NCBI GenBank assembly: GCA_964487045.1 | Contig: CAZAOT010000003.1 | Coordinates: 72,983-136,982 of the forward strand | Length of the DNA stretch: 64,000 nucleotides | From: an uncultured Candidatus Saccharibacteria bacterium | Lineage (GTDB): Bacteria; Patescibacteriota; UBA1384; DTJR01 | Direction of reading: 5' to 3' | Shown here: piece by piece, positions 1,211 to 33,348 of the stretch | How positions within the stretch are numbered: position 1 is the first letter of the stretch | Layout of the letters: every line of letters begins with the position of its first letter | The notes under the pieces: model-generated | What the model was told of the DNA's origin: nothing | The model's database searches: none | The model's input: only the letters and a program-made list of their open reading frames with translations | Program-made: the position numbers and the translations under genes

Positions 1211-1747
1211 ATGCTTATTCTATTAATTATTTTAGATTTATTTTGGTCGGGGGCAGCTTGGGTATATGACATGAGCAAACTCATAACACTCTCGCCCTTA
1301 ATTTGGCCGTTTGTGGCAGTCTGCCCGGTCTTTCCGCTTCTACTAGCCCTTGTTCTCCTGCAATTGTATCGCAAAAAATCCCCAAATCAATTTTTACTAG
1401 CTTTTGCGGCAGTTGGGAGTGTCATTTATGGATTGATAGCAATCCTGTTTTATCCAGTTGCAATGATATATCAAGGATTTTCTTGGAATGGTCTTGGGCA
1501 AATATTTTGGGTACTGGTTTATGGCGTGCAAGGAGCTTGGCTGATAAAAAAATACAAAATTAAAAAATTGCCTCTGTACACCTCTACTATTTTTTTTGGA
1601 GTGCAGATAATAGTGATAGATCTCTGGCAGAAAAGCTTTGGTTATTTCGATTTTTCAAATATTCCCTTTTTGATCTTAATTCTTGTAGTAATCTTAAGTT
1701 TTCTATTTTTTTCTATACTCCTTGATGTTTTAATGAGAAAGTGCTAA
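1211..1747 (+). CDS. small polytopic membrane protein (possibly DUF1405-like)
   Basis: 178-aa ORF with several hydrophobic helices. The family assignment is from memory only. Confidence 0.6.
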   Translation: MLILLIILDLFWSGAAWVYDMSKLITLSPLIWPFVAVCPVFPLLLALVLLQLYRKKSPNQFLLAFAAVGSVIYGLIAILFYPVAMIYQGFSWNGLGQIFWVLVYGVQGAWLIKKYKIKKLPLYTSTIFFGVQIIVIDLWQKSFGYFDFSNIPFLILILVVILSFLFFSILLDVLMRKC

Positions 1748-1787
1748 AATTCCCACAGCGATATTATTCTGATTGCGGAGGCCTACT

Positions 1788-2111
1788 ATGTCCGACCTTT
1801 CTGCTGTCGCTAGTCGTGTTGTTGGGGGTGTTCTTCTGACTCGGACTCCAGGCAATATCTTGCGCTGGGGGGCATTCCGGGTCGTAAATGCTACGACCAA
1901 CCCGGTTGGGTCGTTGCAGTTGGAGATTGAAGCAGTAGAGCCCCCTTTCAAGCAGTTTGAAGGGCGCTCGGTGGCGAAGGGGGTTTACGGCATGGGGCGG
2001 ATGTTCCGAAACCGAGGCAATCCGCCCAAGTATGACGGGAAGATAATTCGGCTGGAGGATCCTCTGCTGATCGCTGGCTATGATCCGGCGCCGATGATCT
2101 TTCTGATCTAG
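1788..2111 (+). CDS. hypothetical protein, GC-rich cassette 1
   Basis: ATG at 1788 follows GGAG (1777-1780). The track start at 1773 is TTG. Composition is GC-rich against the AT-rich flanks and a terminator follows. No family recognised. Confidence 0.6.
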   Translation: MSDLSAVASRVVGGVLLTRTPGNILRWGAFRVVNATTNPVGSLQLEIEAVEPPFKQFEGRSVAKGVYGMGRMFRNRGNPPKYDGKIIRLEDPLLIAGYDPAPMIFLI

Positions 2112-2134
2112 GGCAGCACCCGCTGACCTACAAA

Positions 2135-2173
2135 GGGGCATCCGCACTCACGTGTGGATGCCCCTTTCTCTTT
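2135..2173. terminator. intrinsic terminator between convergent genes
   Basis: 13-bp stem GGGGCATCCGCAC / GTGTGGATGCCCC with loop TCAC, followed by TTTCTCTTT. AAA upstream allows use from the other strand. Confidence 0.75.
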
Positions 2174-2185
2174 ATCTTCTAGTAT

Positions 2186-2509
2186 TTACTTCTTTGCGGC
2201 TTTTTTGACTTTGTCGTAGCCTTCTTCTAGCTCTGCCTGAATCTCTTTAGCTTGTTTAATGGTAATTTTCTTACCTTTTTCGTATGTTCCTACTACTTTC
2301 TTGACCGCGTCCTTGTAAGTGTCCTTGGTAAAATCTCCAGCTTTTTCAAGCTCAGCAGCGATTTTATCTTTCATTTCCTCTAGATAGTTAGCGATATCAG
2401 CTCGAGTCTCTTTGCCCGACTTTGGAGCAAACAAAATACCGGCGACTGCTCCGGCCAATGCGCCAACTGCTAGTCCTACTCCTACACCCTTCATCGTTTT
2501 CTTGTCCAT
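2186..2509 (-). CDS. YtxH-domain protein
   Basis: N-terminal Gly/Ala-rich helix GVGVGLAVGALAGAVAGILFAPKSGKETR followed by a K/E-rich helical tail, which is the typical YtxH architecture. Confidence 0.8.
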   Translation of the reverse strand: MDKKTMKGVGVGLAVGALAGAVAGILFAPKSGKETRADIANYLEEMKDKIAAELEKAGDFTKDTYKDAVKKVVGTYEKGKKITIKQAKEIQAELEEGYDKVKKAAKK

Positions 2510-2550
2510 CGTTTCCTTTCGTTAATTGATTTGATTATAGCACAATAGTC

Positions 2551-2583
2551 AAAGGCCGCCTCGTTTATGAAAACTCGGCGGCC
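2551..2583 (-). terminator. hairpin abutting stop of HD-domain gene
   Basis: Arms GGCCGCC (2554-2560) and GGCGGCC (2577-2583). On the minus strand only a short TTT tract follows. Confidence 0.5.
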
Positions 2584-3657
2584 CTAGGATTTGCCCCAAT
2601 CGAGATCGGGGTCTTCGAGGTCGAATGATCGTCCGCGGATGAATGGATAGATGCGGGTGATCGAGAGGTTGAGGTGCTCAATGGTTTCACGGCTGAGGAT
2701 TGGCTTGGGCTTGTTGCGAAGTGCCCCGAACAACCGATGGACTTCATAGTCATTCATCTGCAGCAGCAGAAGCGTTGGATTGGCGTCTTGGAAATGCTCA
2801 GAAGACGAGATGAACTCATAACAGCGTTCAAGCTCGCTGGCAAACGGCTTGCGATTAGCGTTGAGCGGTACGTAACAGTTAGCGTACATCCAATCGCGTA
2901 GTCGCCAGAATTCCTTGGCTTCGTCGCTCTTAGAGAAACTGATCCGACCTACCGATGCCGATTCCCTTACCAGGGCATTTGCGAAGTTGAGCAGCCTCTC
3001 TTCCTTGGTTCGTCCGAAGCACATCGCTTGATGGTCGGCCTCTTCGAAGCCTGCTCCGATCCGCAAACCATCCTCGATGTCAGAGAACATGTAGATTTTG
3101 TCTACGATGTTCACCAGGCGAAACTCCTGAGGAAGCCATATGTACTTCTGCCGAGAAGTGCCTGAGTGGTGGTAGATTCCAAGCAGAGTTTCATAGGCCA
3201 GGTCGAGACCTTTGCCCGAGTGTTCAATTCTCTGTAGGTTCAGGCAGGCGATAATGCGGTGGTCGATCGTCAAACCACACAGCTTCGAGATTGTCTCCTC
3301 TCCAAAATGACCGAAGGGTGCGTGGCCGGTGTCATGCCCTAGCCCAACCGCTTCTGTCAAGTACTCATTTAGCTTGAGGAACCAGGCTATGAGCTTAGCG
3401 AGACTTGCAACCTCCATGATGTGAAGCAGTCGATCATTACTGGTCGATTCTTCTCTTCCGATGAAGACTTGGGTCGTTCCATGCTTGCGAAACAGGGACT
3501 CGCTATTGCCGACCCAGTAAGCATCCTCAATGAAGCCTCGCTTACCGGTTGGTCTCCTTCGCCCTCCCTCTTTCTTTGGTCGTCGTCCGCGACTCATCTC
3601 TTCTTGGAACCGTAGGTGCGCCAAGCACCCACGATATCTCTTGTCGAGGTTTAACAC
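2584..3657 (-). CDS. dGTP triphosphohydrolase-like HD-domain protein, GC-rich cassette 2
   Basis: Motifs TTQVF, HIMEV and GLGHDTGHAPFGH match the dGTPase/SAMHD1-type HD signature. GTG start at 3657 lies 7 nt after GGAGGTG. Composition is GC-rich. Confidence 0.75.
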   Translation of the reverse strand: MLNLDKRYRGCLAHLRFQEEMSRGRRPKKEGGRRRPTGKRGFIEDAYWVGNSESLFRKHGTTQVFIGREESTSNDRLLHIMEVASLAKLIAWFLKLNEYLTEAVGLGHDTGHAPFGHFGEETISKLCGLTIDHRIIACLNLQRIEHSGKGLDLAYETLLGIYHHSGTSRQKYIWLPQEFRLVNIVDKIYMFSDIEDGLRIGAGFEEADHQAMCFGRTKEERLLNFANALVRESASVGRISFSKSDEAKEFWRLRDWMYANCYVPLNANRKPFASELERCYEFISSSEHFQDANPTLLLLQMNDYEVHRLFGALRNKPKPILSRETIEHLNLSITRIYPFIRGRSFDLEDPDLDWGKS

Positions 3658-3690
3658 TAGGACGCACCTCCTTATCGTGGGCTGCCTAGG

Positions 3691-3719
3691 ATTGTAGAGA
3701 ACTTATATTCTTAATTCAA
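3691..3719 (-). promoter_or_regulatory. sigma70-type promoter TTGAAT-17-TACAAT for cassette 2
   Basis: On the minus strand, TTGAAT is at 3719-3714 and TACAAT at 3696-3691, with a 17-nt spacer. Confidence 0.6.
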
Positions 3720-3728
3720 GACCAAGTA

Positions 3729-4326: not shown

Positions 4327-4932
4327 TTATTTTTCTTTTTCTGGCTTTTCGTGTTCCTGATAGTCGATTGGTCTTGAAAGGTCGATTTCTTTCTTGTCTT
4401 CTTCGATCAACTTAATTACTTTTTCAATTAATTTTTTGGGATCATCGTCATAGACAATTTTGGGGTTTGGCCGACCGCATTCCTGAACTATCTCATTGAT
4501 TTCTTCGGCAATTCCCCCGGTACCAGTGAGGATTCCAATCGGTTTATGATCTTCAAAAGCAATCGTAAATTCGTTTAGAGTTCCGATTCTTCCACAGACC
4601 GTTATAACCGCATCAGCTGATCTGATCAGAAGAAGGTTTCTTCCTGAATAGCCAAAGCCGGTGTAAATAATGATATCGAACTCTTCAGTCGGTAATTTAT
4701 ATTTTTTAACATGTTCAAGCTCACTTGAAGCAGGTGAGATCCCGATCGAAAAACCTTCCTTAAGCGACTTACATCCCTTGGCAGCCCAGAGCGGTGCTCC
4801 AATTGTAGCTCCAGTTACCAGCACTCCTTCTTGACGAACGATCTCGCGACCTAGTTCTGTAGTCATCTCTTCAGCTTCCGGCGAGCAAGTTCCGGTTACT
4901 GCTGAACCTGATACACAAATTTTATACTTCAT
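4327..4932 (-). CDS. LOG/TIGR00725-like Rossmann-fold protein
   Basis: Pattern VSGSA...LVTGATIGAPLWAAKG...GYSGRNLLLIRSADAVITVCGRIGTLNEF is typical of the LOG / lysine-decarboxylase-like family. Confidence 0.65.
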   Translation of the reverse strand: MKYKICVSGSAVTGTCSPEAEEMTTELGREIVRQEGVLVTGATIGAPLWAAKGCKSLKEGFSIGISPASSELEHVKKYKLPTEEFDIIIYTGFGYSGRNLLLIRSADAVITVCGRIGTLNEFTIAFEDHKPIGILTGTGGIAEEINEIVQECGRPNPKIVYDDDPKKLIEKVIKLIEEDKKEIDLSRPIDYQEHEKPEKEK

Positions 4933-6298
4933 TGTTCTCCTTTGATTCGCCCGAAAATTCGATCGATTCAGAATTCTTGGGGATATCTATTTCAATATTC
5001 ATCGTTTCTTTAATTTTGGCCATTAAAGCCTCTTTAGCTTCAGGCTCGCCGTGAACTAGAACGATTTTCTTAACATTTTTAATCTGCGAGACCCACTCGA
5101 CAAGTTTTGGTTGGTCAGCATGCGCGGAGTATGATTGTATCGGGATGATTTTTGCTTTGGAGAAAATTTCACTGCCTCTTATTTTAACTTCCTTATCTCC
5201 GTCAAGCAATCTTCGCCCAAGAGTGCCTTTTACCTGATAACCGACGATCAAAAGCGTTGTATTTTCCTTTGGCAAAAATGCTTTTTCGTGCCATTGAATT
5301 CTACCGCCATTCGACATTCCTGAGCCAGCAATGATGATTTTGGTCGATTCGTCCTTATCTAACTTCATTGAATCTTCGCTTTCTTCAATCATCTTTAGAC
5401 CTTTAAACTCGAAGAAGTCGTCGCCTGATTTTAAAAGGGCCGTAGCTTCGGCATTATAATACTGAGGATATTTAGCGTAAACTTCAGTCGCCTTAATCGC
5501 CAGCGGACTATCAAGATAAACAGGTATAAATGGAATGCTTCCGCCTTCAACTAGGCCGTTTAGTTCATATAGGATCTCTTGAGTTCTTTCCATTGCAAAT
5601 GATGGCATTAGAATAGTTCCATTTTCGCTAATCGAGTCTTTGATAATCTTCGTGAGCTGCTCTTTACGTTTTTCCATCGGTTCATGTTCTCGATCGCCAT
5701 AGGTCGATTCCATAATTACTAAGTCTGCTGATTCAATAAATTCAGTTTTCTTAAGCAGGGGAACTGGAGGATTGCCGAGATCACCCGAAAAAATAATTGT
5801 TTTTCCTTCTGCCTGGATTTTGACAATTGCTGATCCAAGAATATGACCCGCATCATAAAATTCGACTTCCACGCCTTCAATAGGTGAGAATTTCTCGTGA
5901 TAATTTTTTTCTTCAATTAAGGCAACTGTTTTAGCGACATCATCTAGATCATATAATGGTTGTTTATTAACGTACTCGGCTTCATTTTCCATTAAGTGGC
6001 ATGAGTCTTCGAGGAAAATTTTGGCAAATTCTTGAGTTGGCCCAGTAGCATAAATTTTTCCGCCAAATCCCATTTTTACCAGGTGTGGTGTTCGACCAAT
6101 GTGGTCAATGTGAGAGTGGGTCATGATCATCGCACCGACGTCTGCTGGGTTATAGGGGAACTCCTGCCAGTTTAAGACTGTTTCATCGTCCCCACCTTGA
6201 AACAGACCGCAGTCGATAATCAGTTTGCCAGCGCTAGTTTCAAGTAGATAATTTGATCCTGTCACACCTTCGGTAGCTCCACAGAATGTAATTTTCAT
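4922..6298 (-). CDS. MBL-fold beta-CASP ribonuclease-like hydrolase
   Basis: HSHIDHIG metallo-beta-lactamase motif, and a length and C-terminal region consistent with a beta-CASP RNA-metabolising enzyme. Confidence 0.8.
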   Translation of the reverse strand: MKITFCGATEGVTGSNYLLETSAGKLIIDCGLFQGGDDETVLNWQEFPYNPADVGAMIMTHSHIDHIGRTPHLVKMGFGGKIYATGPTQEFAKIFLEDSCHLMENEAEYVNKQPLYDLDDVAKTVALIEEKNYHEKFSPIEGVEVEFYDAGHILGSAIVKIQAEGKTIIFSGDLGNPPVPLLKKTEFIESADLVIMESTYGDREHEPMEKRKEQLTKIIKDSISENGTILMPSFAMERTQEILYELNGLVEGGSIPFIPVYLDSPLAIKATEVYAKYPQYYNAEATALLKSGDDFFEFKGLKMIEESEDSMKLDKDESTKIIIAGSGMSNGGRIQWHEKAFLPKENTTLLIVGYQVKGTLGRRLLDGDKEVKIRGSEIFSKAKIIPIQSYSAHADQPKLVEWVSQIKNVKKIVLVHGEPEAKEALMAKIKETMNIEIDIPKNSESIEFSGESKENNEV

Positions 6299-6990
6299 TC
6301 GTTGCTCCCTGCTTTATCTTTTTCTTCTTCCGTCTCAATCCCTATGATCTTGAGCGCCGAGCTTGTTCCAATTCGAGTGGCGCCTGCTTCAATCATACCC
6401 TTAGCCTCTTCGAATGTATGGATTCCGCCCGATGCTTTGACCTTTACCTCGTCCCCCACAGAAGCACGCATCGTCTTAATATCATCGATGGTCGATGGTC
6501 TTGGGCCGTAGCCAGTCGATGATTTCACAAATGCTGCTCCTGCTTTCTCGGCTCTCTTGCATGCTTCGGTTAGCTCTTCTTCTGTTAGAAAGCCAACTTC
6601 CATAATAACTTTGAGGCCAATTGGCTGAATCGCTGTTGCGATTTCCCTGATTTCTTCTTCGATAAAATCAAATTTCTTCTCTTTAATTGCTCCAATGTTA
6701 ACAACCATATCAATCTCGGTTGCGCCATCTTCTACAGCGAGCTTGGCTTCGGCTACTTTAATTTCGGTTTTTGAAATACCAAATGGAAAGCCAATTACAC
6801 TAATTACTTCAATATCGGCTCCTTCGAGATATTCTTTTGCGGCTGCTACGCGGTAGGTAGTGACGCAAACACTATGAAAACCATATTCCTTAGCTTCAGA
6901 GCAAAGCTTTTTGATGTCTTCATTTGTAGCATCTGCTTTGACACAAGTGTGGTCAATATAAGAAACGATATTTTCTTTTGTAATATTCAT
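6295..6990 (-). CDS. deoC: deoxyribose-phosphate aldolase
   Basis: YIDHTCVK, VIGFPFG, EIDMVVNIG and FVKSSTGYG are DeoC class I aldolase motifs. Confidence 0.9.
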   Translation of the reverse strand: MNITKENIVSYIDHTCVKADATNEDIKKLCSEAKEYGFHSVCVTTYRVAAAKEYLEGADIEVISVIGFPFGISKTEIKVAEAKLAVEDGATEIDMVVNIGAIKEKKFDFIEEEIREIATAIQPIGLKVIMEVGFLTEEELTEACKRAEKAGAAFVKSSTGYGPRPSTIDDIKTMRASVGDEVKVKASGGIHTFEEAKGMIEAGATRIGTSSALKIIGIETEEEKDKAGSNE

Positions 6991-7245: not shown

Positions 7246-7968
7246 CTAGCTTGGTAGCTGAAGCGGAGTTAGATACTCAGCAGCTCTGGGAGTCGCCTTG
7301 ATGTCAGCTTTGTATCCATAGGTTCTCGCTGTCTCCAGATCCCAAGCGTAACTACCAGCGGGCTGAGTGGGCCTTGCGATGATTCGCGGGTCAAACCCTA
7401 TCTCATTTCCGGTCGTTGCCCAGTCGATATATGGGTTGATGTCAACTTCATACCGGAAAGGATCGGTCCGATCGCCGGCAGCAAGTGTAGCCAGCTCATC
7501 TAGACGATCGTCTGGCCAGTAAACCTTGCTTGTTGTCTGGCGGTTTTCGATCTCGACCCATTCATCGCCAACTGAGATGACTTCCGCTTCGTCGAAATGG
7601 ACAAATGCCTCTTGCGGAATCTCAATCTCCGGAAACATCAACTCCTCGGGACAGAGCTGTTCGAAGAAGGTCGTGCCAAGTAGCGTTATGCTGTCATCCC
7701 CACGTGGGATGACAAAGTAGGGCTGGTTTTCGTATGCGCCCCACTTCTGGCCAGGCCAGAGATAGCCAAGCGCCCAATCACCGTCTTTTTGCTGATAGAC
7801 GAGCCATGCCGCGCCGCTTCGAACTTCCCACGCTACTGAGCAAAAGTTGTGAAAAGCTGGTTCGGCTGGCCGCTCCGGTGATATCCTTAGCAGGAAAGAG
7901 CAGCACATGTCGGCTTTGTACATGAACGAGTCGATGATCCTTGGCCTAAACTGAAGCCGGTTTGGCAT
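7246..7968 (-). CDS. hypothetical protein, GC-rich cassette 3
   Basis: ATG at 7968 lies 6 nt after AAAGGAGG. The track start at 7992 is less well placed. 240 aa, no motif recognised. Confidence 0.6.
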   Translation of the reverse strand: MPNRLQFRPRIIDSFMYKADMCCSFLLRISPERPAEPAFHNFCSVAWEVRSGAAWLVYQQKDGDWALGYLWPGQKWGAYENQPYFVIPRGDDSITLLGTTFFEQLCPEELMFPEIEIPQEAFVHFDEAEVISVGDEWVEIENRQTTSKVYWPDDRLDELATLAAGDRTDPFRYEVDINPYIDWATTGNEIGFDPRIIARPTQPAGSYAWDLETARTYGYKADIKATPRAAEYLTPLQLPS

Positions 7969-8028
7969 GTCTGCCTCCTTTTGTTCTTTCAAATGCTACA
8001 GGGTTGCATAAAGCTTGCCACTTTGCAG

Positions 8029-8059: not shown

Positions 8060-8581
8060 TTATTTATAAATATAGATCTTCGGAGAAGTATTCTTTTTTA
8101 ATGGTTTGCGCCCTGTGAAATTAAAGGTTAGGGACACAACGGAAGCATTTCGCTTTAAATTTTTAAAAATAATAGGTTCAATCTTAGCTAAGAGTTTTTC
8201 AAGTAGATAGACATAAATCAAATCAGCTTTGTTTATTAGGTTTTCGTATTTTAATATATTGCCGTAATAAATTTTAATATTTTTGGTTTGATGGTGAAGC
8301 GCAACATTTAATTTGGCGAGTATGAAATAGAAAGGGGAGATTTCGATGCCGATACCTTTTGCTCCAAACTCTTTGGCAGCAATAATCAAGCTTCGCGCAT
8401 TGCCACAGCCGAGATCGATGACCACTTGTCCAGATTTTAAGTAGGCCATCTCAAAAGCCTTTTTAATAATTTTTTCTTTAGCGTAAACCGTCGGTGCACC
8501 TGAAAAGGCGGAGATTAACAGAGAAATTTGCCAAATAAGTGCGATCAAAGCTAGAGTGATAAATAATATAGAAATAGTCAT
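8060..8581 (-). CDS. class I SAM-dependent methyltransferase with N-terminal membrane anchor
   Basis: VIDLGCGNARSLIIAA is the motif I glycine loop. An N-terminal hydrophobic helix is present. Confidence 0.75.
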   Translation of the reverse strand: MTISILFITLALIALIWQISLLISAFSGAPTVYAKEKIIKKAFEMAYLKSGQVVIDLGCGNARSLIIAAKEFGAKGIGIEISPFYFILAKLNVALHHQTKNIKIYYGNILKYENLINKADLIYVYLLEKLLAKIEPIIFKNLKRNASVVSLTFNFTGRKPLKKNTSPKIYIYK

Positions 8582-8678: not shown

Positions 8679-8939
8679 CTACCGGAGGTTTCGGCGCTGA
8701 TCCGCGGTGGGGTTCTTGCCCACGTTTGAGTTGCCGACCGTCCGCTTTCGCACGATCCAGTCGGCAAGGAGCACGAAGGCGCTGATCGTGGCAGTGATGG
8801 CAGTCATGTAGAGCGTCGGCTTGCTCTTAAACATGATGCCAAAAGCGATGAAAAGCGGGGTAGTGGGGAAGAGGAAGAATTTGAACAATCTCCTCTTTCC
8901 CTTGGTGAGAAAAGACTTCGGCTTGAGTGACTTCATCAT
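8679..8939 (-). CDS. small membrane protein (2 predicted TM), GC-rich cassette 4
   Basis: 86 aa with two hydrophobic stretches and basic termini. GC-rich, last gene before the terminator. Confidence 0.55.
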   Translation of the reverse strand: MMKSLKPKSFLTKGKRRLFKFFLFPTTPLFIAFGIMFKSKPTLYMTAITATISAFVLLADWIVRKRTVGNSNVGKNPTADQRRNLR

Positions 8940-8953
8940 AGTCCTCCCTGTTT

Positions 8954-9523
8954 CTAGCCCTTGCAGTCAGGGCATACGATCGTGATTTGGTTTCCTACGC
9001 CGGACCCTGTGTCCGGAATGAAGGGATCTCCACAGCGGAAGCAGTATCTGGGTTCACCTGCAACCAGCTTCTTGTCTGCATCCGAGCAGACCTTGCACTT
9101 GCGGGGATTCCAGAGGTTGCGTCTGCTTGGGGTATAAGCACCGCAATGTGGGCAGTAGAAGTGTGTCATTAGGCGTTGCCCAGTGCTCTTGGCGACAGGC
9201 GGGATCCAGCGCTTGATCGTGAAGCGCTGCTCCAAACCAGGGTGCAACTCTACCGTAGCGCCGTGGCCGCTGGTAGCTCGGACAGCAAAGCCGTTTTCCA
9301 GAAAGAGGTTCGCTATCTGCGCGAGTTCGCCCAGAGGTTCCTGGTTGAGGGCAGTTGCCAACTCAACATAGCATAGTTCTTCTGGAATGCTAGCGGCAGG
9401 CTGGTTGATTTCGACAGCGATACGAGCTTGCTGCTCCTCGGGTAGATTTGCCAATAAGGCAGTAATCCGCCCCTTGAGCGCGTCTGCTTCTTGGCTTGTA
9501 CTGGTGACTCGGGCGCGGATCAT
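8954..9523 (-). CDS. double zinc-ribbon protein, GC-rich cassette 4
   Basis: The C-terminal 70 aa carry four CxxC pairs (CPHC, CKVC, CFRC, CPDC). The N-terminal about 110 aa are unassigned. SD AGGGAG is upstream. Confidence 0.65.
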   Translation of the reverse strand: MIRARVTSTSQEADALKGRITALLANLPEEQQARIAVEINQPAASIPEELCYVELATALNQEPLGELAQIANLFLENGFAVRATSGHGATVELHPGLEQRFTIKRWIPPVAKSTGQRLMTHFYCPHCGAYTPSRRNLWNPRKCKVCSDADKKLVAGEPRYCFRCGDPFIPDTGSGVGNQITIVCPDCKG

Positions 9524-9571
9524 GGTTGCTCCCTATCCTTTTTGGTATGTAAAGGTTCGAACGAACGTTTG

Positions 9572-9600
9572 ATTATATTTGAATTACGTCCGAATGTCAA
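9572..9600 (-). promoter_or_regulatory. perfect consensus promoter TTGACA-17-TATAAT
   Basis: Minus-strand TTGACA is at 9600-9595 and TATAAT at 9577-9572, with a 17-nt spacer, upstream of the zinc-ribbon gene. Confidence 0.7.
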
Positions 9601-9613
9601 TAATTAAGTACAA

Positions 9614-9634
9614 GGGACGCCGGAGGGGCGTCCC
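9614..9634 (-). terminator. hairpin after 9638..9919 gene
   Basis: Arms GGGACGCC and GGCGTCCC. The downstream T tract is weak. Confidence 0.5.
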
Positions 9635-9637
9635 TGA

Positions 9638-9919
9638 TCAGAGCCAGCAGTCGTGGCGAGTGATGATATTTCCGTCATCGCCAATACTGCCAACTTTGCA
9701 TGTTCTTCCGAGACGGCGAAAGCCTCTCATTGCAGGAGCAAATGCGGCTGCACCTAACAATATATAGAAGCTGGTACCAGATATGCCCGAGATGGTAGCG
9801 AAAAGCCAGAACATCTTGGGGTAGCAGATCGCTACAGTCGTTGAAGTGTACGCAACCCCTTTGAGAAGGGGAGCGAGAACGATCGGTCGTGAAACTAATG
9901 ACAGAATTCGACTGATCAT
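9638..9919 (-). CDS. small membrane protein, GC-rich cassette 4
   Basis: 93 aa with hydrophobic helices. SD GGAAGGAG lies 6 nt before the ATG. Confidence 0.55.
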   Translation of the reverse strand: MISRILSLVSRPIVLAPLLKGVAYTSTTVAICYPKMFWLFATISGISGTSFYILLGAAAFAPAMRGFRRLGRTCKVGSIGDDGNIITRHDCWL

Positions 9920-10074: not shown

Positions 10075-10149
10075 GGGCCTGTAGCTCAGTGGTAGAGCAG
10101 TTGCCTTTTAAGCAACGTGTCGTGGGTTCGATACCCACCAGGCCCTCCA
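10075..10149 (+). tRNA. tRNA-Lys (anticodon UUU), CCA encoded
   Basis: Hand-folded cloverleaf. Acceptor stem GGGCCTG/CAGGCCC, D stem GCTC/GAGC, anticodon stem GTTGC/GCAAC with loop CTTTTAA, T arm GTGGG-TTCGATA-CCCAC. 75 nt in total. Confidence 0.92.
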
Positions 10150-10187: not shown

Positions 10188-10341
10188 TTATTTGGAGTCA
10201 CTTAAGAGCGCGAAAGGCGTAGGCCGAGCTAAGGTCGAGAAAAAAAATCAGCAAAAATTGTCCAACATCTTGATTTTTTGAAAAATAAGTGAATAATGTA
10301 TTATTAATTTGGAATACGTACATTGAAAGAGGTAGGTAGCG

Positions 10342-10761
10342 ATGAGTAAGCGCATCCTGGTGGTTGATGATGAGCGCCACATCGTCCGTCTGGTTAAGCT
10401 CAACCTGGAACGCGCCGGCGGCTATGACGTCCTGACAGCGTACGACGGGATCGAGGCTCTGGGCAAAGTCAAGACCGAGAGCCCCGATATGGTGGTGCTC
10501 GACATCATGATGCCCCGGATGGACGGTTACGAAGTACTGCGTAACTTGCAAGCAGATCCCAGCTGCCAGAACATACCCGTGATCATGCTGACCGGCAAGG
10601 ACCAGGACGCCGACTTCTTCAAGGCCTGGGCCAGTGGGTTGAGGGCATATATGACAAAGCCCTTTGATCCCCAAGAATTGCTGACATTCATCCAACGGAT
10701 CTTCGAGGCCGATCAAATCGGGTATGGGGATGATACAGATGATTCGTGCTTTGAAGTGTAA
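10342..10761 (+). CDS. stand-alone response-regulator receiver (CheY-like), GC-rich cassette 5
   Basis: The acidic pocket and phospho-acceptor pattern ILVVDDE...DMVVLDIMMPRMDG...MLTGK...KPF is present. No output domain and no kinase nearby. Confidence 0.9.
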   Translation: MSKRILVVDDERHIVRLVKLNLERAGGYDVLTAYDGIEALGKVKTESPDMVVLDIMMPRMDGYEVLRNLQADPSCQNIPVIMLTGKDQDADFFKAWASGLRAYMTKPFDPQELLTFIQRIFEADQIGYGDDTDDSCFEV

Positions 10762-10785
10762 TGTAGCTTGCCCCTCTCGATTCCC

Positions 10786-10827
10786 ATGCCCGCATCTGCT
10801 CCGGAGGCTTTGCGGGCATTCTTTTTC
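10786..10827 (+). terminator. intrinsic terminator of cassette 5
   Basis: ATGCCCGCA/TGCGGGCAT stem followed by TCTTTTTC. Confidence 0.85.
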
Positions 10828-11003
10828 TAAATAGTTAACACCCATTTTATAAAGTCCAAACACAAATTTTTCAAAATTAGTTCAATCTGAGCCACAGGTG
10901 AAATTTCGCGTTCCACCCGCGAAATCCCCAGAAATAAAATTGCCCCGTTAGGGGCTATTTTAATTATTTAGAGATGTTTCCAGTCGTGTGATATATTAGT
11001 CCT

Positions 11004-11453
11004 ATGGTCAAATCTCATCCAAAAGTAGGTGTTGGCATTATCGTCATCAAGAAAGAAAATGGCAAAGATTTTGTAATGCTCCATCAGCGCAAAGGAAGAA
11101 ATGGGCTAGGCAAGGACTATTGGGGCAGTGGTGGAGGACACCTGGAATTGGGTGAATCGCTGGAGGCCGGTGCGCTTCGGGAGCTCAAAGAGGAAGCAGG
11201 AGGCAAACTGAAGGTAAAAAATGTGAGATTCTTAGGTGTGATTAACTTTACCGAAATGAATCCAAAACACTATGTCGATGTCAGTTTTGTAGCCGATTGG
11301 GTGTCCGGGGAACCAATTAACAATGCTCCCGAGGAAACAACCGACTGGAAGTGGTTTGCGCTGGATGAGCTACCAAGCCCGCTCTTTCCGCCAGTAGAGC
11401 ATTATCTGGAAGCGCTCGAGACAGGGCAAAGTTTTTTTGATTCGTCGTTTTAG
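11004..11453 (+). CDS. NUDIX hydrolase
   Basis: Nudix box GGGHLELGESLEAGALRELKEEAG. Confidence 0.9.
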   Translation: MVKSHPKVGVGIIVIKKENGKDFVMLHQRKGRNGLGKDYWGSGGGHLELGESLEAGALRELKEEAGGKLKVKNVRFLGVINFTEMNPKHYVDVSFVADWVSGEPINNAPEETTDWKWFALDELPSPLFPPVEHYLEALETGQSFFDSSF

Positions 11454-15946: not shown

Positions 15947-15988
15947 TTTCTATTGCTCTTTAACAAACAGGGAAAACGAAAGGAAGAC

Positions 15989-16219
15989 ATGCCGACGTCA
16001 ATCGAGACTAAGGCGAGGAATATCGATAGACACTTGCCGGAGATGATGTGCTTGGCGCACTCGTCCGGCTTGCCTTCGATCATCCTTCCGTTTGGCACTT
16101 TTGACCAGCCAACTCAGGAGAAGCTGCGTGACCTAGTGGCCGAGTACGCCAAAGGCAAGGGCCACAAGACGCGCAAGTTCTTGCATCAGACGCGCCTCTA
16201 TCTCGAGGTGAGTATCTAA
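15989..16219 (+). CDS. hypothetical protein (76 aa), GC-rich cassette 6 gene 1
   Basis: ATG at 15989 after AAAGGAAG. GC-rich. No family recognised. Confidence 0.55.
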   Translation: MPTSIETKARNIDRHLPEMMCLAHSSGLPSIILPFGTFDQPTQEKLRDLVAEYAKGKGHKTRKFLHQTRLYLEVSI

Positions 16220-16226
16220 GGAGGGC

Positions 16227-16448
16227 ATGATGCCCAGGATAACCAGAACTGATTCGGCCGGCAATGCTTTGGAGATCGACGGCGCCAAGGTCGTCGCCGG
16301 GCCTTACGGCTCTCGGGCTGAGGTTGTTGTTGCGCACGCAGAGGTTGGGATGGAGTTGGCTTGTCGTTCGGGACGAATTTCAAGCGGGGTCTTTATTGAG
16401 CTCAATGGAAAGCACTATGCTGTCGAGGTCGCGACACAATTGATGTAA
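16227..16448 (+). CDS. hypothetical protein (73 aa), cassette 6 gene 2
   Basis: AAGGAGGG lies 2 nt before the ATG. There is a 7-nt gap to gene 1. Confidence 0.55.
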   Translation: MMPRITRTDSAGNALEIDGAKVVAGPYGSRAEVVVAHAEVGMELACRSGRISSGVFIELNGKHYAVEVATQLM

Positions 16449-16473
16449 GTTGGCCAAAATAGGGAGGCAGATT

Positions 16474-17739
16474 GTGGACAAAGAAGCGATCCAAGGCGCC
16501 CGCAGGGCGCTTCTGCTCAAGAAGCTTGAAGTAGCATCAACGACCAAGGAATGCACCCTTGCGTTCCAGGGTCTCAAGCTCTACAGAGATGACCTTTCGA
16601 TTGTCGCCACTCGTAAGAGAGCGATTGAGCTCGCAGCTTCGGCAGGCGACATGGATGAGGTTCGTCGCTTTCCGTATGATGTGGGTATCTTCTCTCTGGG
16701 AGATCAGGCTTCCGAGTTCTTTCGTAAGGCCATGCTGCTTTGCAGGCCTGAAGAAGTATACGACTTCACAGGCAACTTCGGCTATTACGCCGATGAAGTT
16801 GTTAGCTTCCTTGTCGAGGGGCTTACCGATCCGCTCAAGCTGACTCGACTAGCGATGCGACTCGGAGCGGAGGGTCTGCTTGAGCGCGGACAGGAAGTGA
16901 TCGCTCGGGCTGCTGAACTGGCTGCAAGCTGGGAAGTGTGCGGTTATGTCGGGACGATACACTATGCGCCGCTTCCGACAGGGTTTCTGACCATGGCCGT
17001 CCTTCTCGCTGAGGGGCAGAAGGGTTACGATGCTCCTCTCGAAGTTTGTGGGTGGATGAAGGCTTCGCTCAACGACCCGCTCGAATTCAGACAAGCAGCG
17101 GCTGTTGCCGAGCTGCTTGATGCGCCAAACAAGCGTATCAGGCGGGTAGCCGGAGAGCGGATCAGGCAGGCTTACCAGGAGAAACTGAGCGGCCAAGATG
17201 GCGACTTCTATATCCAAAGCGCCTGGAACGTCGTTTGCGATGCCCGCGATGCGCTTCCGGAACTGGCTGCAGAGCTGACCGCTGATCTCGTGGTGCGTCT
17301 GACAGATGCGGTACCAGCCTGTCAGGACTTTTCGGAGGCAAAGTCGCATCTTGAAGTCGCTTCCGCAATGGAGGACTTCGGGATCGATGGAGTCTACTGG
17401 CCGGCAGCCATGCGTGCGATGGAGCTGGCAGAGGGCTGTGATGATATCCTGGCGTTGGTGCGCCTTGGCATTCATGTCCAGGAGCTCACCGAGGCTGTCC
17501 TGGTAATGGCTGCAACCGAAGATGATATCATTGCAGTCATACAGCGCAACCCGAACTTCTCTGGTGAGTGGACGTTGCCTCTTTGCGAGCGGATCTTCGA
17601 CTATCGGCGCCAGAGGGCGCAGACGATCGAGGACTTCATGATTCTGCATCACCTGACCAAGGACCCGGTCAAACTGGCCGAGGTCGAGGATCGCATCCAG
17701 GAGCTCATCGCTCCATACCATACCGAGCCTGAGGAGTAA
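16474..17739 (+). CDS. hypothetical all-alpha protein (about 421 aa), cassette 6 gene 3
   Basis: GTG at 16474 lies 6 nt after GGGAGG and is in frame with the track start at 16450. The sequence is acidic and Leu/Ala-rich. A terminator follows. Confidence 0.65.
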   Translation: MDKEAIQGARRALLLKKLEVASTTKECTLAFQGLKLYRDDLSIVATRKRAIELAASAGDMDEVRRFPYDVGIFSLGDQASEFFRKAMLLCRPEEVYDFTGNFGYYADEVVSFLVEGLTDPLKLTRLAMRLGAEGLLERGQEVIARAAELAASWEVCGYVGTIHYAPLPTGFLTMAVLLAEGQKGYDAPLEVCGWMKASLNDPLEFRQAAAVAELLDAPNKRIRRVAGERIRQAYQEKLSGQDGDFYIQSAWNVVCDARDALPELAAELTADLVVRLTDAVPACQDFSEAKSHLEVASAMEDFGIDGVYWPAAMRAMELAEGCDDILALVRLGIHVQELTEAVLVMAATEDDIIAVIQRNPNFSGEWTLPLCERIFDYRRQRAQTIEDFMILHHLTKDPVKLAEVEDRIQELIAPYHTEPEE

Positions 17740-17763
17740 CTTCCCCTGGTTCATGGCTCTACA

Positions 17764-20389: not shown

Positions 20390-20418
20390 TTGACTTGTCT
20401 GCTGATTTTGTCTAATAT
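20390..20418 (+). promoter_or_regulatory. promoter TTGACT-17-TAATAT for cassette 7
   Basis: TTGACT at 20390-20395 and TAATAT at 20413-20418. Confidence 0.6.
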
Positions 20419-20476
20419 CTGCTTATCGGAGGCTTTGATCCTTCGGTATTTCTTCAAATCGGCAGGAGGGAGCGTC

Positions 20477-20851
20477 ATGCCGAGGGATTCGATTCTCTAC
20501 GAAAAAGCCAGGGCGAGGTGGGAGTATGCTTCACATCTTCCATCTCGCAGTACAGTCAGGCAGTATTCGCTCAAGTGTTTCGCATTAGTATACCCGGTCG
20601 AAGTTTTGCGGGAATACTGGCGTGTAGACGCGTTGTCGCGCCAGAGTCTAATGGTATCGTCTCACAGCTTTGCCCCTTCTCCCGCTGAACTTGCAGCCAT
20701 GGCAGAAGGGCGTGACCGTAATGAACGGCGCGCAAATCAAGCCAGGGCGAGACTCGAAAGGATGGCGACGGAGCACGGGGTGGACCTAGATGCGATGGCT
20801 GATGATATCGCATTCGTTTGGCACAACTGGAGTCTGCTTGAGCTCGAGTAG
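20477..20851 (+). CDS. hypothetical protein (124 aa), GC-rich cassette 7
   Basis: ATG at 20477 lies 6 nt after GGAGGGAG. The C-terminal half is Arg/Ala-rich. Confidence 0.55.
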   Translation: MPRDSILYEKARARWEYASHLPSRSTVRQYSLKCFALVYPVEVLREYWRVDALSRQSLMVSSHSFAPSPAELAAMAEGRDRNERRANQARARLERMATEHGVDLDAMADDIAFVWHNWSLLELE

Positions 20852-31556: not shown

Positions 31557-32394
31557 CTACCTGCTGCTAGCAGTTGTTTTAGTTGGTCTTTTTCTGTATT
31601 CGACAATATATCAAAATGCTCAAGCCAACATTGACCCTGCCTCAGCCAAAATTAGTTTTTTGGATGTCGGCCAAGCGGATTGCGCATTAGTTAATTTGCC
31701 AAATAATAAGCAAATTCTGATCGATGCAGGCAAATCGTCAGACGTTGTCTCGAAAATAAGATCGAGGATGCCGGCCTTTGATTCGGAGATAGAAGCGGTT
31801 TTCTTGAGTCATCCAGATAGTGACCATGTTGGAGGGTTTGTCTCGGTTCTTAATTCTTACAAAGTCGACAAAGTTTATCTGAACACCGATCAATCTGACT
31901 CTAAGACTTTTGACGCGATTTTAGCTGAAATGGATAAGCAAAAAATTTCTCACGAAGTGATCGGCTCTGGACGAGACGTGTATATAGAAGATCTGCGAAT
32001 CAAAACGCTTTGGCCTTCGGAAAATAGTGGTTCCTTAAGTGAAAATAATCGCTCCTTGGTGCTAAAGCTAATGATCAAATCGGGAGTCGCTCTTTTTACG
32101 GGAGATCTCGAGATAGAAGGGCAGAATAAATTAATGAGTGAATATAAGGAAGAAGATCTTTTGGCAGATTTGTATAAAGTTCCACATCACGGAGCCTCTG
32201 GAGCGTGGAATGAAAGCTTTGCCCAGAAGGTTAAACCCAAAAATGCTGTGATTTCGGTAGGTAATAATTCATATGGTCATCCTGGGCAAAGTACAATTAC
32301 GGGACTTGAGAAGATAGGAAGTAAGGTTTATCGCACAGATCAGCTAGGTACGATTGATTTTGTCCTAAGTGAAGCGGGATTTGTGTCAAAATAA
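31531..32394 (+). CDS. ComEC C-terminal MBL-fold domain encoded as separate ORF
   Basis: FLDVGQADC, HPDSDHVGG and VPHHGA motifs. It overlaps the previous ORF by 26 nt in the +1 frame. The start is a TTG. Confidence 0.78.
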   Translation: MLNQNKIFDYLLLAVVLVGLFLYSTIYQNAQANIDPASAKISFLDVGQADCALVNLPNNKQILIDAGKSSDVVSKIRSRMPAFDSEIEAVFLSHPDSDHVGGFVSVLNSYKVDKVYLNTDQSDSKTFDAILAEMDKQKISHEVIGSGRDVYIEDLRIKTLWPSENSGSLSENNRSLVLKLMIKSGVALFTGDLEIEGQNKLMSEYKEEDLLADLYKVPHHGASGAWNESFAQKVKPKNAVISVGNNSYGHPGQSTITGLEKIGSKVYRTDQLGTIDFVLSEAGFVSK

Positions 32395-32398
32395 TACT

Positions 32399-32436
32399 TA
32401 AAAAAGAGGAAAGCCCCCCGCCATGCGGCAGGGGGC
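32399..32436 (-). terminator. intrinsic terminator of cassette 8 (probably bidirectional)
   Basis: GCCCCCCGCC/GGCAGGGGGC stem. TTTCCTCTTTTTT follows on the minus strand. Confidence 0.8.
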
Positions 32437-32461
32437 CTTGTTTCCCGGTGCGATGAAAGTC

Positions 32462-32911
32462 TCACCAGCGTCCCCCCGGGTAGGGGTTGTTGGCGCGCTC
32501 GAAGTTCCGCTGAGCGCGCTCCAGGTCTCGGTAGCCGCTCGACAGGTAGCCGAGCCGCCGCCGCTCCGCTTCGATGGCGGAGATTTGGTTGTTGTACCCA
32601 CCCTGAGGCAGGTACCCGCCTTGGTAGCTGTAGCCACCCTGGGCGACGTAGCCGTTGCCGCAGCCATAGTTGCGCTGCTGGCAACCGCAGATAGTGCCGA
32701 TCGGCCTGATTTGGAAGCAGGCCGAACAGCGGACGAGCTGCGCCTGCGGGGCGAAGTAACCGCCACCGCAGGTGGGCATCGGCATCGGGCGATAGCCCGG
32801 GCCGCACCCACCACCGCTGCCACCGACCGAGAGGATCACGGTGATCCTGGGGCCGGCGCTCGCCGTCGAAACGGCGGCGATTACGACGAGAACGATTGGC
32901 ATCGTCCTCAT
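32462..32911 (-). CDS. secreted Gly/Cys/Tyr-rich low-complexity protein, GC-rich cassette 8
   Basis: ATG at 32911 yields the signal peptide MRTMPIVLVVIAAVSTASA. GGY repeats and 10 Cys. It was chosen over three overlapping ORFs because it has an SD, a promoter and a terminator. Confidence 0.55.
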   Translation of the reverse strand: MRTMPIVLVVIAAVSTASAGPRITVILSVGGSGGGCGPGYRPMPMPTCGGGYFAPQAQLVRCSACFQIRPIGTICGCQQRNYGCGNGYVAQGGYSYQGGYLPQGGYNNQISAIEAERRRLGYLSSGYRDLERAQRNFERANNPYPGGRW

Positions 32912-32956
32912 TTTGGACACCTCTTTCAAAGGTGCTGGAATTGACTGATTCGGGTA

Positions 32957-32985
32957 ACTATACCACAATTACCCGAGAAAGTCAA
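32957..32985 (-). promoter_or_regulatory. promoter TTGACT-17-TATAGT with CGGGTAA/TTACCCG inverted repeat spanning the -10
   Basis: Minus-strand TTGACT is at 32985-32980 and TATAGT at 32962-32957. The inverted repeat is CGGGTAATTGTGGTATAGTTACCCG. Confidence 0.6.
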
Positions 32986-32988
32986 GGT

Positions 32989-33348
32989 TCAGACCCTCAG
33001 CATCGCTCCCACGCTCAGCTCCATCTGAGTCTCGAGCCTATCAAGTGAGCAATATGCCCTCTGGATCGAAACCTCCCGAAGATCTCTCGGCTTTGCCAGG
33101 GAGATGACGTGTATCTCGCCGAGTTCATGCTCCTCAAGTGTATCAACAGCAGTTGTGTGACCTTCATTGCAGATAATCAGGTAAGGTCCTTCGCACTTGA
33201 GAGCGAAGATCTCCCGAATATCTCTTCCGTGGAATTCGTGAAGCAGGTATGTCAGCTCGAGGCGTTCAAGTACCGCCTTTACTTTTGAGCCGATCATCCG
33301 CTGATCCTCGACTGCCACGGCCGATACAACACAGATTTGCCTTTTCAA
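32989..33348 (-). CDS. hypothetical protein (119 aa), GC-rich cassette 8
   Basis: TTG at 33348 lies 7 nt after AAGGAGG. No motif recognised. Confidence 0.5.
   Translation of the reverse strand: MKRQICVVSAVAVEDQRMIGSKVKAVLERLELTYLLHEFHGRDIREIFALKCEGPYLIICNEGHTTAVDTLEEHELGEIHVISLAKPRDLREVSIQRAYCSLDRLETQMELSVGAMLRV

Follow-up and report, generated by a model that had tools for sequence, protein, structure and literature searches.

A GC-rich dGTPase-type HD gene in a Candidatus Saccharibacteria genome occupies an old, conserved locus and appears to encode a resident enzyme

Does a gene of atypical GC content that encodes a defence-capable enzyme mark a defence island, or can it be a resident gene of long standing? 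The question is raised by a 64,000-nucleotide stretch of contig CAZAOT010000003.1 (hereafter the window) from an uncultured Candidatus Saccharibacteria bacterium, in which a minus-strand open reading frame (ORF) at 2584-3657, here the HD gene, starts with GTG and encodes a 357-aa HD-domain protein of the dGTPase family, recognised by the Pfam HD and NCBIfam dGTPase models and predicted to be a deoxynucleoside triphosphate (dNTP) triphosphohydrolase. A first-pass annotation had described the gene as a monocistronic unit of foreign composition whose island-like context favoured defence over housekeeping. We conclude that the atypical composition predates the split of the species that share the gene, and that the gene behaves as a resident enzyme. 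On balance, and with only modest assurance, we read the HD protein as a divergent representative, peculiar to its lineage, of a large family of ~355-aa, TT1383-like dNTP triphosphohydrolases, with a housekeeping role in the dNTP pool.

The HD protein matches Pfam HD at 5e-7, and its best NCBIfam matches are dGTPase equivalogs (NF002327, 133.5 bits against a cutoff of 393; TIGR01353, 70 bits against a cutoff of 152). The generic dGTPase model of PADLOC gives 74 bits, and the Pfam scan did not detect the HD_assoc domain. Judged by these scores, the protein is a divergent member of the dGTPase superfamily that belongs to no equivalog. The closest solved structure by sequence is the Thermus thermophilus dNTP triphosphohydrolase TT1383 (2dqb; 1.5e-16). 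It is also the best fold match of the AlphaFold2 (AF2) model of the HD protein (predicted local distance difference test score, pLDDT, 90.5), with a template-modelling score (TM) of 0.67 over 361 columns, the full length, and a probability of 1.00; E. coli Dgt, the L. blandensis dGTPase, CloA and the Shewanella anti-phage dGTPase give weaker fold matches (TM 0.5-0.6).

The HD protein contains the segments LLHIMEV and GLGHDTGHAPFGH. The four residues of the H...HD...D metal-binding motif (H79, H108, D109 and D186) do not vary across alignments A1, A2 and A4; the alignments also hold H117 and E120 invariant, 9 and 12 residues past the HD histidine, and likewise Q63 and R76. The counterparts in E. 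coli Dgt are H69, H117, D118 and D268 for the metal and H126/E129 for the catalytic pair (PMC6511015). By alignment, then, the metal and catalytic residues of the HD protein are intact. We suggest that H79, H108, D109 and D186 would bind a divalent metal, that H117 and E120 would form the catalytic pair, and that dNTPs would be cleaved to deoxynucleoside and triphosphate, helping a bacterium with a small genome to control its dNTP pool or to turn over nucleotides; the enzymatic activity, the substrate range and the housekeeping role are ones that we infer. Housekeeping roles have been documented for bacterial Dgt proteins, for example in Caulobacter cell-cycle progression (PMC11071499). The earlier identification of a 357-aa dGTPase-type HD protein with a GTG start is thus borne out, and the loss of catalytic residues, which the first-pass annotation had raised as a possible objection to its own reading, was not seen.

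The relatives of the protein were searched at several depths. A word-indexed search returned only 13, and an exhaustive profile search returned 1089 representatives at E <= 1e-30, the top 150 of which are nearly all ~350-370 aa long and aligned over most of their length. Scanning species-representative genomes with the window peptide alone gave no match; when the scan was based on an alignment, the two best matches were Paceibacteria metagenome-assembled genomes, followed by canonical dGTPase-like genes of Actinomycetota, Bacillota and other phyla. In a neighbour-joining tree of 177 sequences (100 bootstraps), 22 of them canonical dGTPase-like proteins, the window protein groups with the proteins P0002-P0004 and L011/P0064 at 99% bootstrap. 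This subclade is nested in a 155-member clade with 100% bootstrap that includes the Paceibacteria loci L012 and L013 and leaves out all 22 canonical sequences; its position within the 155-member clade is not resolved in the neighbour-joining tree. The only named members of the ~355-aa family are Paceibacteria (candidate phyla radiation), and the window protein can be aligned with the family over its full length, C-terminus included. Elsewhere, the family members examined sit beside yidD-rnpA-rpmH-dnaA-dnaN (L092-L094) or are flanked by lysS/greA and mraZ/mraW (L012), and their GC content equals that of their locus or exceeds it by 0-7 GC points. The wider family looks like a set of resident, core-context genes of candidate-phyla bacteria. 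A metagenome scan added no member to the GC-rich subclade (best match, 38% identical), and we found no paper on dNTPases of this type in Patescibacteria.

The subclade itself is small and fixed in place. Among 5.8 billion proteins it comprises five clusters only, and all five lie at one slot, directly downstream of a 137-141-aa gene and, wherever the contig extends far enough, upstream of ytxH. The fullest order is DeoC, beta-CASP, SLOG, the 137-141-aa gene, HD, YtxH, a 107-aa gene on the opposite strand, a 518-527-aa gene, LepA and MurJ; the 141-aa gene beside the HD gene in the window has no Pfam match. Relatives of the HD protein in this slot are 71-75% identical to it, with one at 43%. In the comparison of the window with locus L009, backbone proteins are 77-92% identical and the HD protein 75%. 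By Nei-Gojobori estimates, synonymous divergence (dS) is saturated in all genes (1.4 to infinity), and the HD gene has a nonsynonymous divergence (dN) of 0.19-0.21 and a dN/dS of ~0.1; it evolves at about twice the rate of the average backbone gene and not above that of the beta-CASP gene. The saturated dS, the low dN/dS and the fixed slot together indicate that the HD unit is old and was held at its site throughout this divergence, and the protein is, as far as these comparisons reach, apparently long-resident and vertically inherited. Going by the nearest named relatives, the narrow lineage that carries the gene is probably Patescibacteria. While species diverged, the HD gene has kept its place, with the 137-141-aa gene on one side and ytxH on the other. 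Placement with vertically inherited orthologs, which the first-pass annotation had named as a finding that would tell against defence, is largely what the 100%-bootstrap family and the fixed slot give. In one sequencing run, SRR29243437, two subclade proteins occur together, at L003 and L179: P0001, with 100% identity to the protein of the window, and P0004, with 71%, so related species that bear the locus co-occur.

Composition was the ground on which the HD gene had been called foreign. The HD gene has a GC content of 52% and a GC content at third codon positions (GC3) of 0.61, and the neighbouring 107-aa ORF has 56% and 0.63; backbone genes have 38-43% and 0.35-0.41. The atypical GC of both genes is therefore real. 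The claim of foreign origin does not follow from it, as all orthologs share the GC3 excess (0.58-0.69 for the HD gene, 0.64-0.74 for the 107-aa gene). A GC contrast found in all orthologs, together with saturated dS, indicates that the compositional anomaly is ancient and maintained, and it is no mark of recent transfer.

The regulatory sequences of the HD gene are conserved as well. A promoter-like site, TTGAAT-17-TACAAT, lies on the minus strand at 3691-3721 (hexamers 3719-3691), was identified by consensus scan and by conservation, and has its -35 box within a small palindrome. It is followed by a short conserved leader (3658-3690, minus) with the Shine-Dalgarno sequence AAGGAGG at 3667-3673, 9 nt 5' of the GTG. 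Promoter-like sites in the region are about as numerous in the consensus scan as in shuffled sequence; at this one, both hexamers are invariant in four orthologous loci (window, L009, L006 and L007), and the leader CAGCCCACGATAAGGAGGTG is invariant in the same four. Immediately 3' of the HD stop codon, sequence inspection finds a GC-rich hairpin, GGGCCGCC...GGCGGCC (2553-2584, minus), a likely HD terminator that abuts the ytxH promoter and is kept in L009, L006 and L011. The HD gene thus appears to be its own, monocistronic transcription unit with its own promoter and terminator, and it would be transcribed alone from the conserved promoter and leader, stopping at its own hairpin. On this point the earlier description of a stand-alone unit agrees with ours, the promoter site being conserved base for base in the three orthologous loci. 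In the palindrome around the -35 box (3703-3721, minus), changes in one arm are compensated in the other across the orthologs (TCTTGAATTAAGA, ACTTGAATTAGAAGT and GCCCTTGAATTAGGGC); the element might serve as an operator or might terminate the upstream gene.

We were concerned that several observations sit poorly with the housekeeping reading, and we gather them here. The HD protein scores under all curated NCBIfam cutoffs, and identity between the window subclade and the rest of its family is just 34-39%. The subclade also lies 10-14 GC points above its backbone and in a genomic context other than that of the family. Locus L010 has no HD gene between ytxH and the 139-aa gene, only a 35-nt spacer. 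In L011, the HD protein (829-1900, minus) is 43% identical to the window HD protein, yet YtxH is 91% and the 107-aa protein 67% identical; allele replacement or very uneven rates could account for this divergence. The window protein and three close orthologs are without one residue between D186 and a conserved Tyr, and the E. coli Dgt equivalent of the displaced Tyr, Y272, is essential (PMC6511015). To these we add the reach of the suggested check for another dgt: it covered 64 kb of the genome, the window, in which it found no second dGTPase-like ORF.

What alternative do these observations favour? The one that survives best is that the HD protein is an anti-phage dNTPase, a stand-alone effector that depletes dNTPs on infection and that was acquired as a cassette and then kept in the lineage. 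We consider it unlikely but by no means negligible. A monocistronic gene with its own promoter, terminator and atypical composition would suit such an effector, and enzymes of the dGTPase family are proven defence effectors (10.1101/2021.04.26.441389; PMC13519002). The intergenic slots near the 137-141-aa gene differ between relatives: between SLOG and the 137-aa gene, the ERZ1426829 contig has two added genes, one of 222 aa and one of 246 aa that carries NTP_transf_3. These extra genes, the absence from L010, the divergent allele of L011 between conserved flanks and the roughly twofold rate of the HD gene are what keep the defence explanation alive.

Against it, the anti-phage dGTPase model NF041026 gives the HD protein 43 bits where the cutoff is 400, and the match to Sp-dGTPase (9p8w) covers residues 50-123 only (E = 2e-4). 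Tal et al. (10.1101/2021.04.26.441389) took at least 45% identity to Sp-dGTPase as their defence-enriched set and at least 25% identity over 90% of the length, in proteins of >400 aa, as a wider set; the HD protein, at 357 aa, falls outside both. Homologs less than 45% identical to Sp-dGTPase were seldom found beside defence genes, which suggested housekeeping, and the same authors allow that distant homologs could combine housekeeping with defence (Tal et al., 10.1101/2021.04.26.441389). A PADLOC scan of ten neighbours within ~10 kb of the HD gene found no defence gene and one weak methyltransferase-domain match (8060-8581). In phage and plasmid records, no relative exceeds 40% identity to the HD protein or spans 80% of it, and viral contigs gave four weak matches only. 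Repeats and target-site duplications flanking the cassettes were sought, and only short repeats at chance level were found. A Clover-type pairing was considered because of the NTP_transf_3 gene two genes away in the one relative; the pairing was rejected because that gene is not adjacent, is missing from the window and belongs to another enzyme family. In the window, the HD gene has no Clover-like partner nucleotidyltransferase. With a subclade of five clusters in one slot, saturated dS, dN/dS of ~0.1 and a Paceibacteria-type family in core contexts, the claim that an island-like context favours defence is one that we abandon.

A second alternative starts from the window at large. The backbone of the window, at ~38% GC, is interspersed with GC-rich units (49-67% GC), most of which are single genes; the units lie at 1776-2167, 2555-3690, 7246-7992, 8679-9919, 10198-10863, 15953-17754, 20390-20851 and 32340-33348. 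Apart from the HD gene, the GC-rich units that were scanned gave no Pfam or PHROG match (in PHROG, a weak HD-domain match only), and no paralogy among GC-rich ORFs was found at E <= 1e-3. Those with orthologs keep their GC3 excess despite saturated dS, and they diverge more quickly than the backbone (55-76% identity compared with 77-92%). Accessory genes are usually AT-rich, and the GC3 enrichment here runs opposite to that pattern. The puzzle is that the HD gene and about eight other single-gene units have kept a high GC3 in an AT-rich genome even though synonymous divergence is saturated. Conceivably, the GC-rich single-gene units (HD, the 107-aa ORF, 7246-7992, 8679-9919, 15953-17754 and 32400-32915) form a distinct accessory set whose GC3 is kept high by a persistent process, either biased gene conversion at recombining loci or rare-codon selection that throttles toxic products, and the HD protein is an antiviral or conflict dNTPase specific to candidate-phyla bacteria, not a housekeeping enzyme. 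We regard this as distinctly unlikely. One of these units, at 32400-32915 (minus; 63-67% GC), encodes a small Gly/Tyr/Cys-rich protein with a predicted signal peptide, after which comes a GC-rich hairpin at 32405-32440; the ORFs open in four frames there are probably due only to GC richness. L010 (5723-7483) has another GC-rich gene in the slot next to the one that lacks HD, encoding 398 aa at 63% GC with its own hairpin.

The active site raises a third alternative, that the HD protein is a catalytically altered or non-hydrolytic derivative with a nucleotide- or nucleic-acid-binding regulatory role, or with a different substrate; this we think improbable. The deletion gives DKI-YMFSD in the four close orthologs only, where others have DKIAYxFSD; it maps to window positions 3100-3103, the codons for I188-Y189, and is limited to the window protein and its three 71-75% identical orthologs. 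The Tyr (Y189) consequently stands at D+3 in these four, the usual place being D+4. The subclade also carries a basic, Arg/Lys-rich N-terminal insert, RGRRPKKEGGRRRPTGKRG, that is not found in the rest of the family, and the HxRTR motif before the first His has become SNDR in the HD protein. These changes might be expected of an altered derivative; its metal ligands, His/Glu pair, Q63 and R76 are nevertheless invariant under strong purifying selection, L011/P0064 retains the canonical D+4 spacing within the same clade, and the predicted fold is intact. The last alternative, a functionless passenger cassette freshly transferred and marked by its GC and GC3 contrast with the flanking genes, we discount almost entirely, given orthologs at the same site in at least four other lineages, saturated dS, dN/dS of ~0.1, conserved regulatory sequences and a GC contrast in all lineages. 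We therefore return to the housekeeping dNTP triphosphohydrolase as the preferred reading.

The second GC-rich gene beside ytxH was examined in the same way. The 107-aa ORF (1788-2111, plus; ATG start, with GGAGG 6 nt 5' of the ATG) has orthologs of 105-106 aa that are 64-67% identical and stand at the same position in L010 and L011, three lineages with the window. In its alignment with two orthologs, differences number 61 at third codon positions compared with 28 and 22 at the other two; the excess at plus-frame third positions, which are first positions in the antisense frame, indicates that the plus ORF is the gene and the antisense 127-aa ORF is not. The estimates for this gene are dN 0.22-0.27, dS ~2 and dN/dS ~0.1. 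L010 has a 106-aa gene without an HD gene, so that the two are not obligatorily coupled. By its codon pattern and conservation, the 107-aa ORF is a genuine gene: it codes for protein, is conserved and independent of HD, and is under purifying selection. No match to its product was found in Pfam, NCBIfam, PADLOC or PHROG, and its AF2 model is beta-rich, of low confidence (pLDDT 59) and without a significant fold match in the PDB. Long ORFs on both strands had led us to consider a structured RNA at 1776-2167 (for example RNase P or tmRNA); the only RNA gene that Rfam and ARAGORN report is a tRNA-Lys at 10075, and the codon-position pattern is that of plus-strand coding.

A GC-rich, terminator-like hairpin of 16 bp (2132-2167) lies between the convergent 107-aa ORF and ytxH; of its two sides, the plus one has the better T-tract. 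At this place L010 carries a hairpin that differs in sequence. As the first-pass annotation had it, the 107-aa neighbour is unassignable to a family and ends in a strong hairpin, and a native ytxH separates the two GC-rich genes. The ytxH gene (2186-2509, minus; 107 aa) has backbone composition and a Pfam YtxH match of E = 7.5e-18, its relatives are 79-91% identical, and a conserved extended -10 element, TGCTATAAT, lies at 2534-2542 (minus). Upstream of the 107-aa ORF, the consensus scan alone gives a promoter-like site, TTGATG-17-TAAAAT with TG before the -10, at 1722-1750 (plus), which overlaps the end of the DUF1405 gene. Farther out, between the divergent 527-aa and DUF1405 genes, positions 983-1207 hold four copies of a 14-16-nt motif, ACCCCGTTAGAGA, arranged as two inverted pairs (986-999 with 1053-1066, and 1081-1096 with 1192-1207). 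On the other side, 5' of the HD gene, SLOG cluster 4, a beta-CASP metallo-beta-lactamase and DeoC make up a conserved block of the backbone (4327-6990), and a NUDIX gene lies not far off at 11004-11453. A functional link of the dNTPase with these nucleotide-related neighbours (SLOG, beta-CASP, DeoC and NUDIX) could exist.

These results carry a caution: atypical GC together with a defence-capable domain does not make a defence island, and recognising this guards against a common shortcut, and it means that what is likely a housekeeping dNTPase in candidate-phyla bacteria with small genomes is not catalogued as a defence gene. What deserves attention at this locus is a divergent subclade with an altered active-site helix and a gene-specific enrichment in GC3.

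How, finally, does the HD protein compare with known systems? E. coli Dgt is likewise chromosomal and has equivalent catalytic residues, and its close homologs are not enriched in defence islands (Tal et al., 10.1101/2021.04.26.441389); it is longer, at 505 aa, has a guanine-specific pocket and an ssDNA effector site, and its sequence match to the window protein is marginal (E = 6e-4). Clover is an operon of the CloA dNTPase and the CloB nucleotidyltransferase, whereas the HD gene, without an adjacent nucleotidyltransferase, lies between the 141-aa gene and ytxH. The anti-phage dGTPases (Sp-dGTPase, the octameric Vdg and CloA) share the superfamily and the predicted chemistry of the HD protein, and Sp-dGTPase resembles it further in being a single gene without fused sensor domains; the fold match to this group is TM 0.53-0.59, the window protein is shorter, and its gene has the same position in five clusters, though it is absent from L010 and its L011 allele is strongly divergent, with no defence-island context. 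Nearer to it stands the ~355-aa Paceibacteria-type family, with which it shares a full-length alignment and a 100%-bootstrap clade; it differs from that family in being GC-rich relative to its backbone and in lying beside ytxH instead of dnaA/rnpA or lysS/mraZ. Among characterised proteins, TT1383 (2dqb) and the PRK01286-type 'dGTPase-like' proteins are the best whole-length match by both sequence and fold. Identity to TT1383 is only ~23%; unlike TT1383, the HD protein carries the basic insert near its N-terminus, is one residue short before the active-site Tyr and has a C-terminal third, ending in DPDLDW, that is specific to the Paceibacteria-type family. The two are alike in size (~360-376 aa), in the H...HD...D metal site and in the His/Glu pair.

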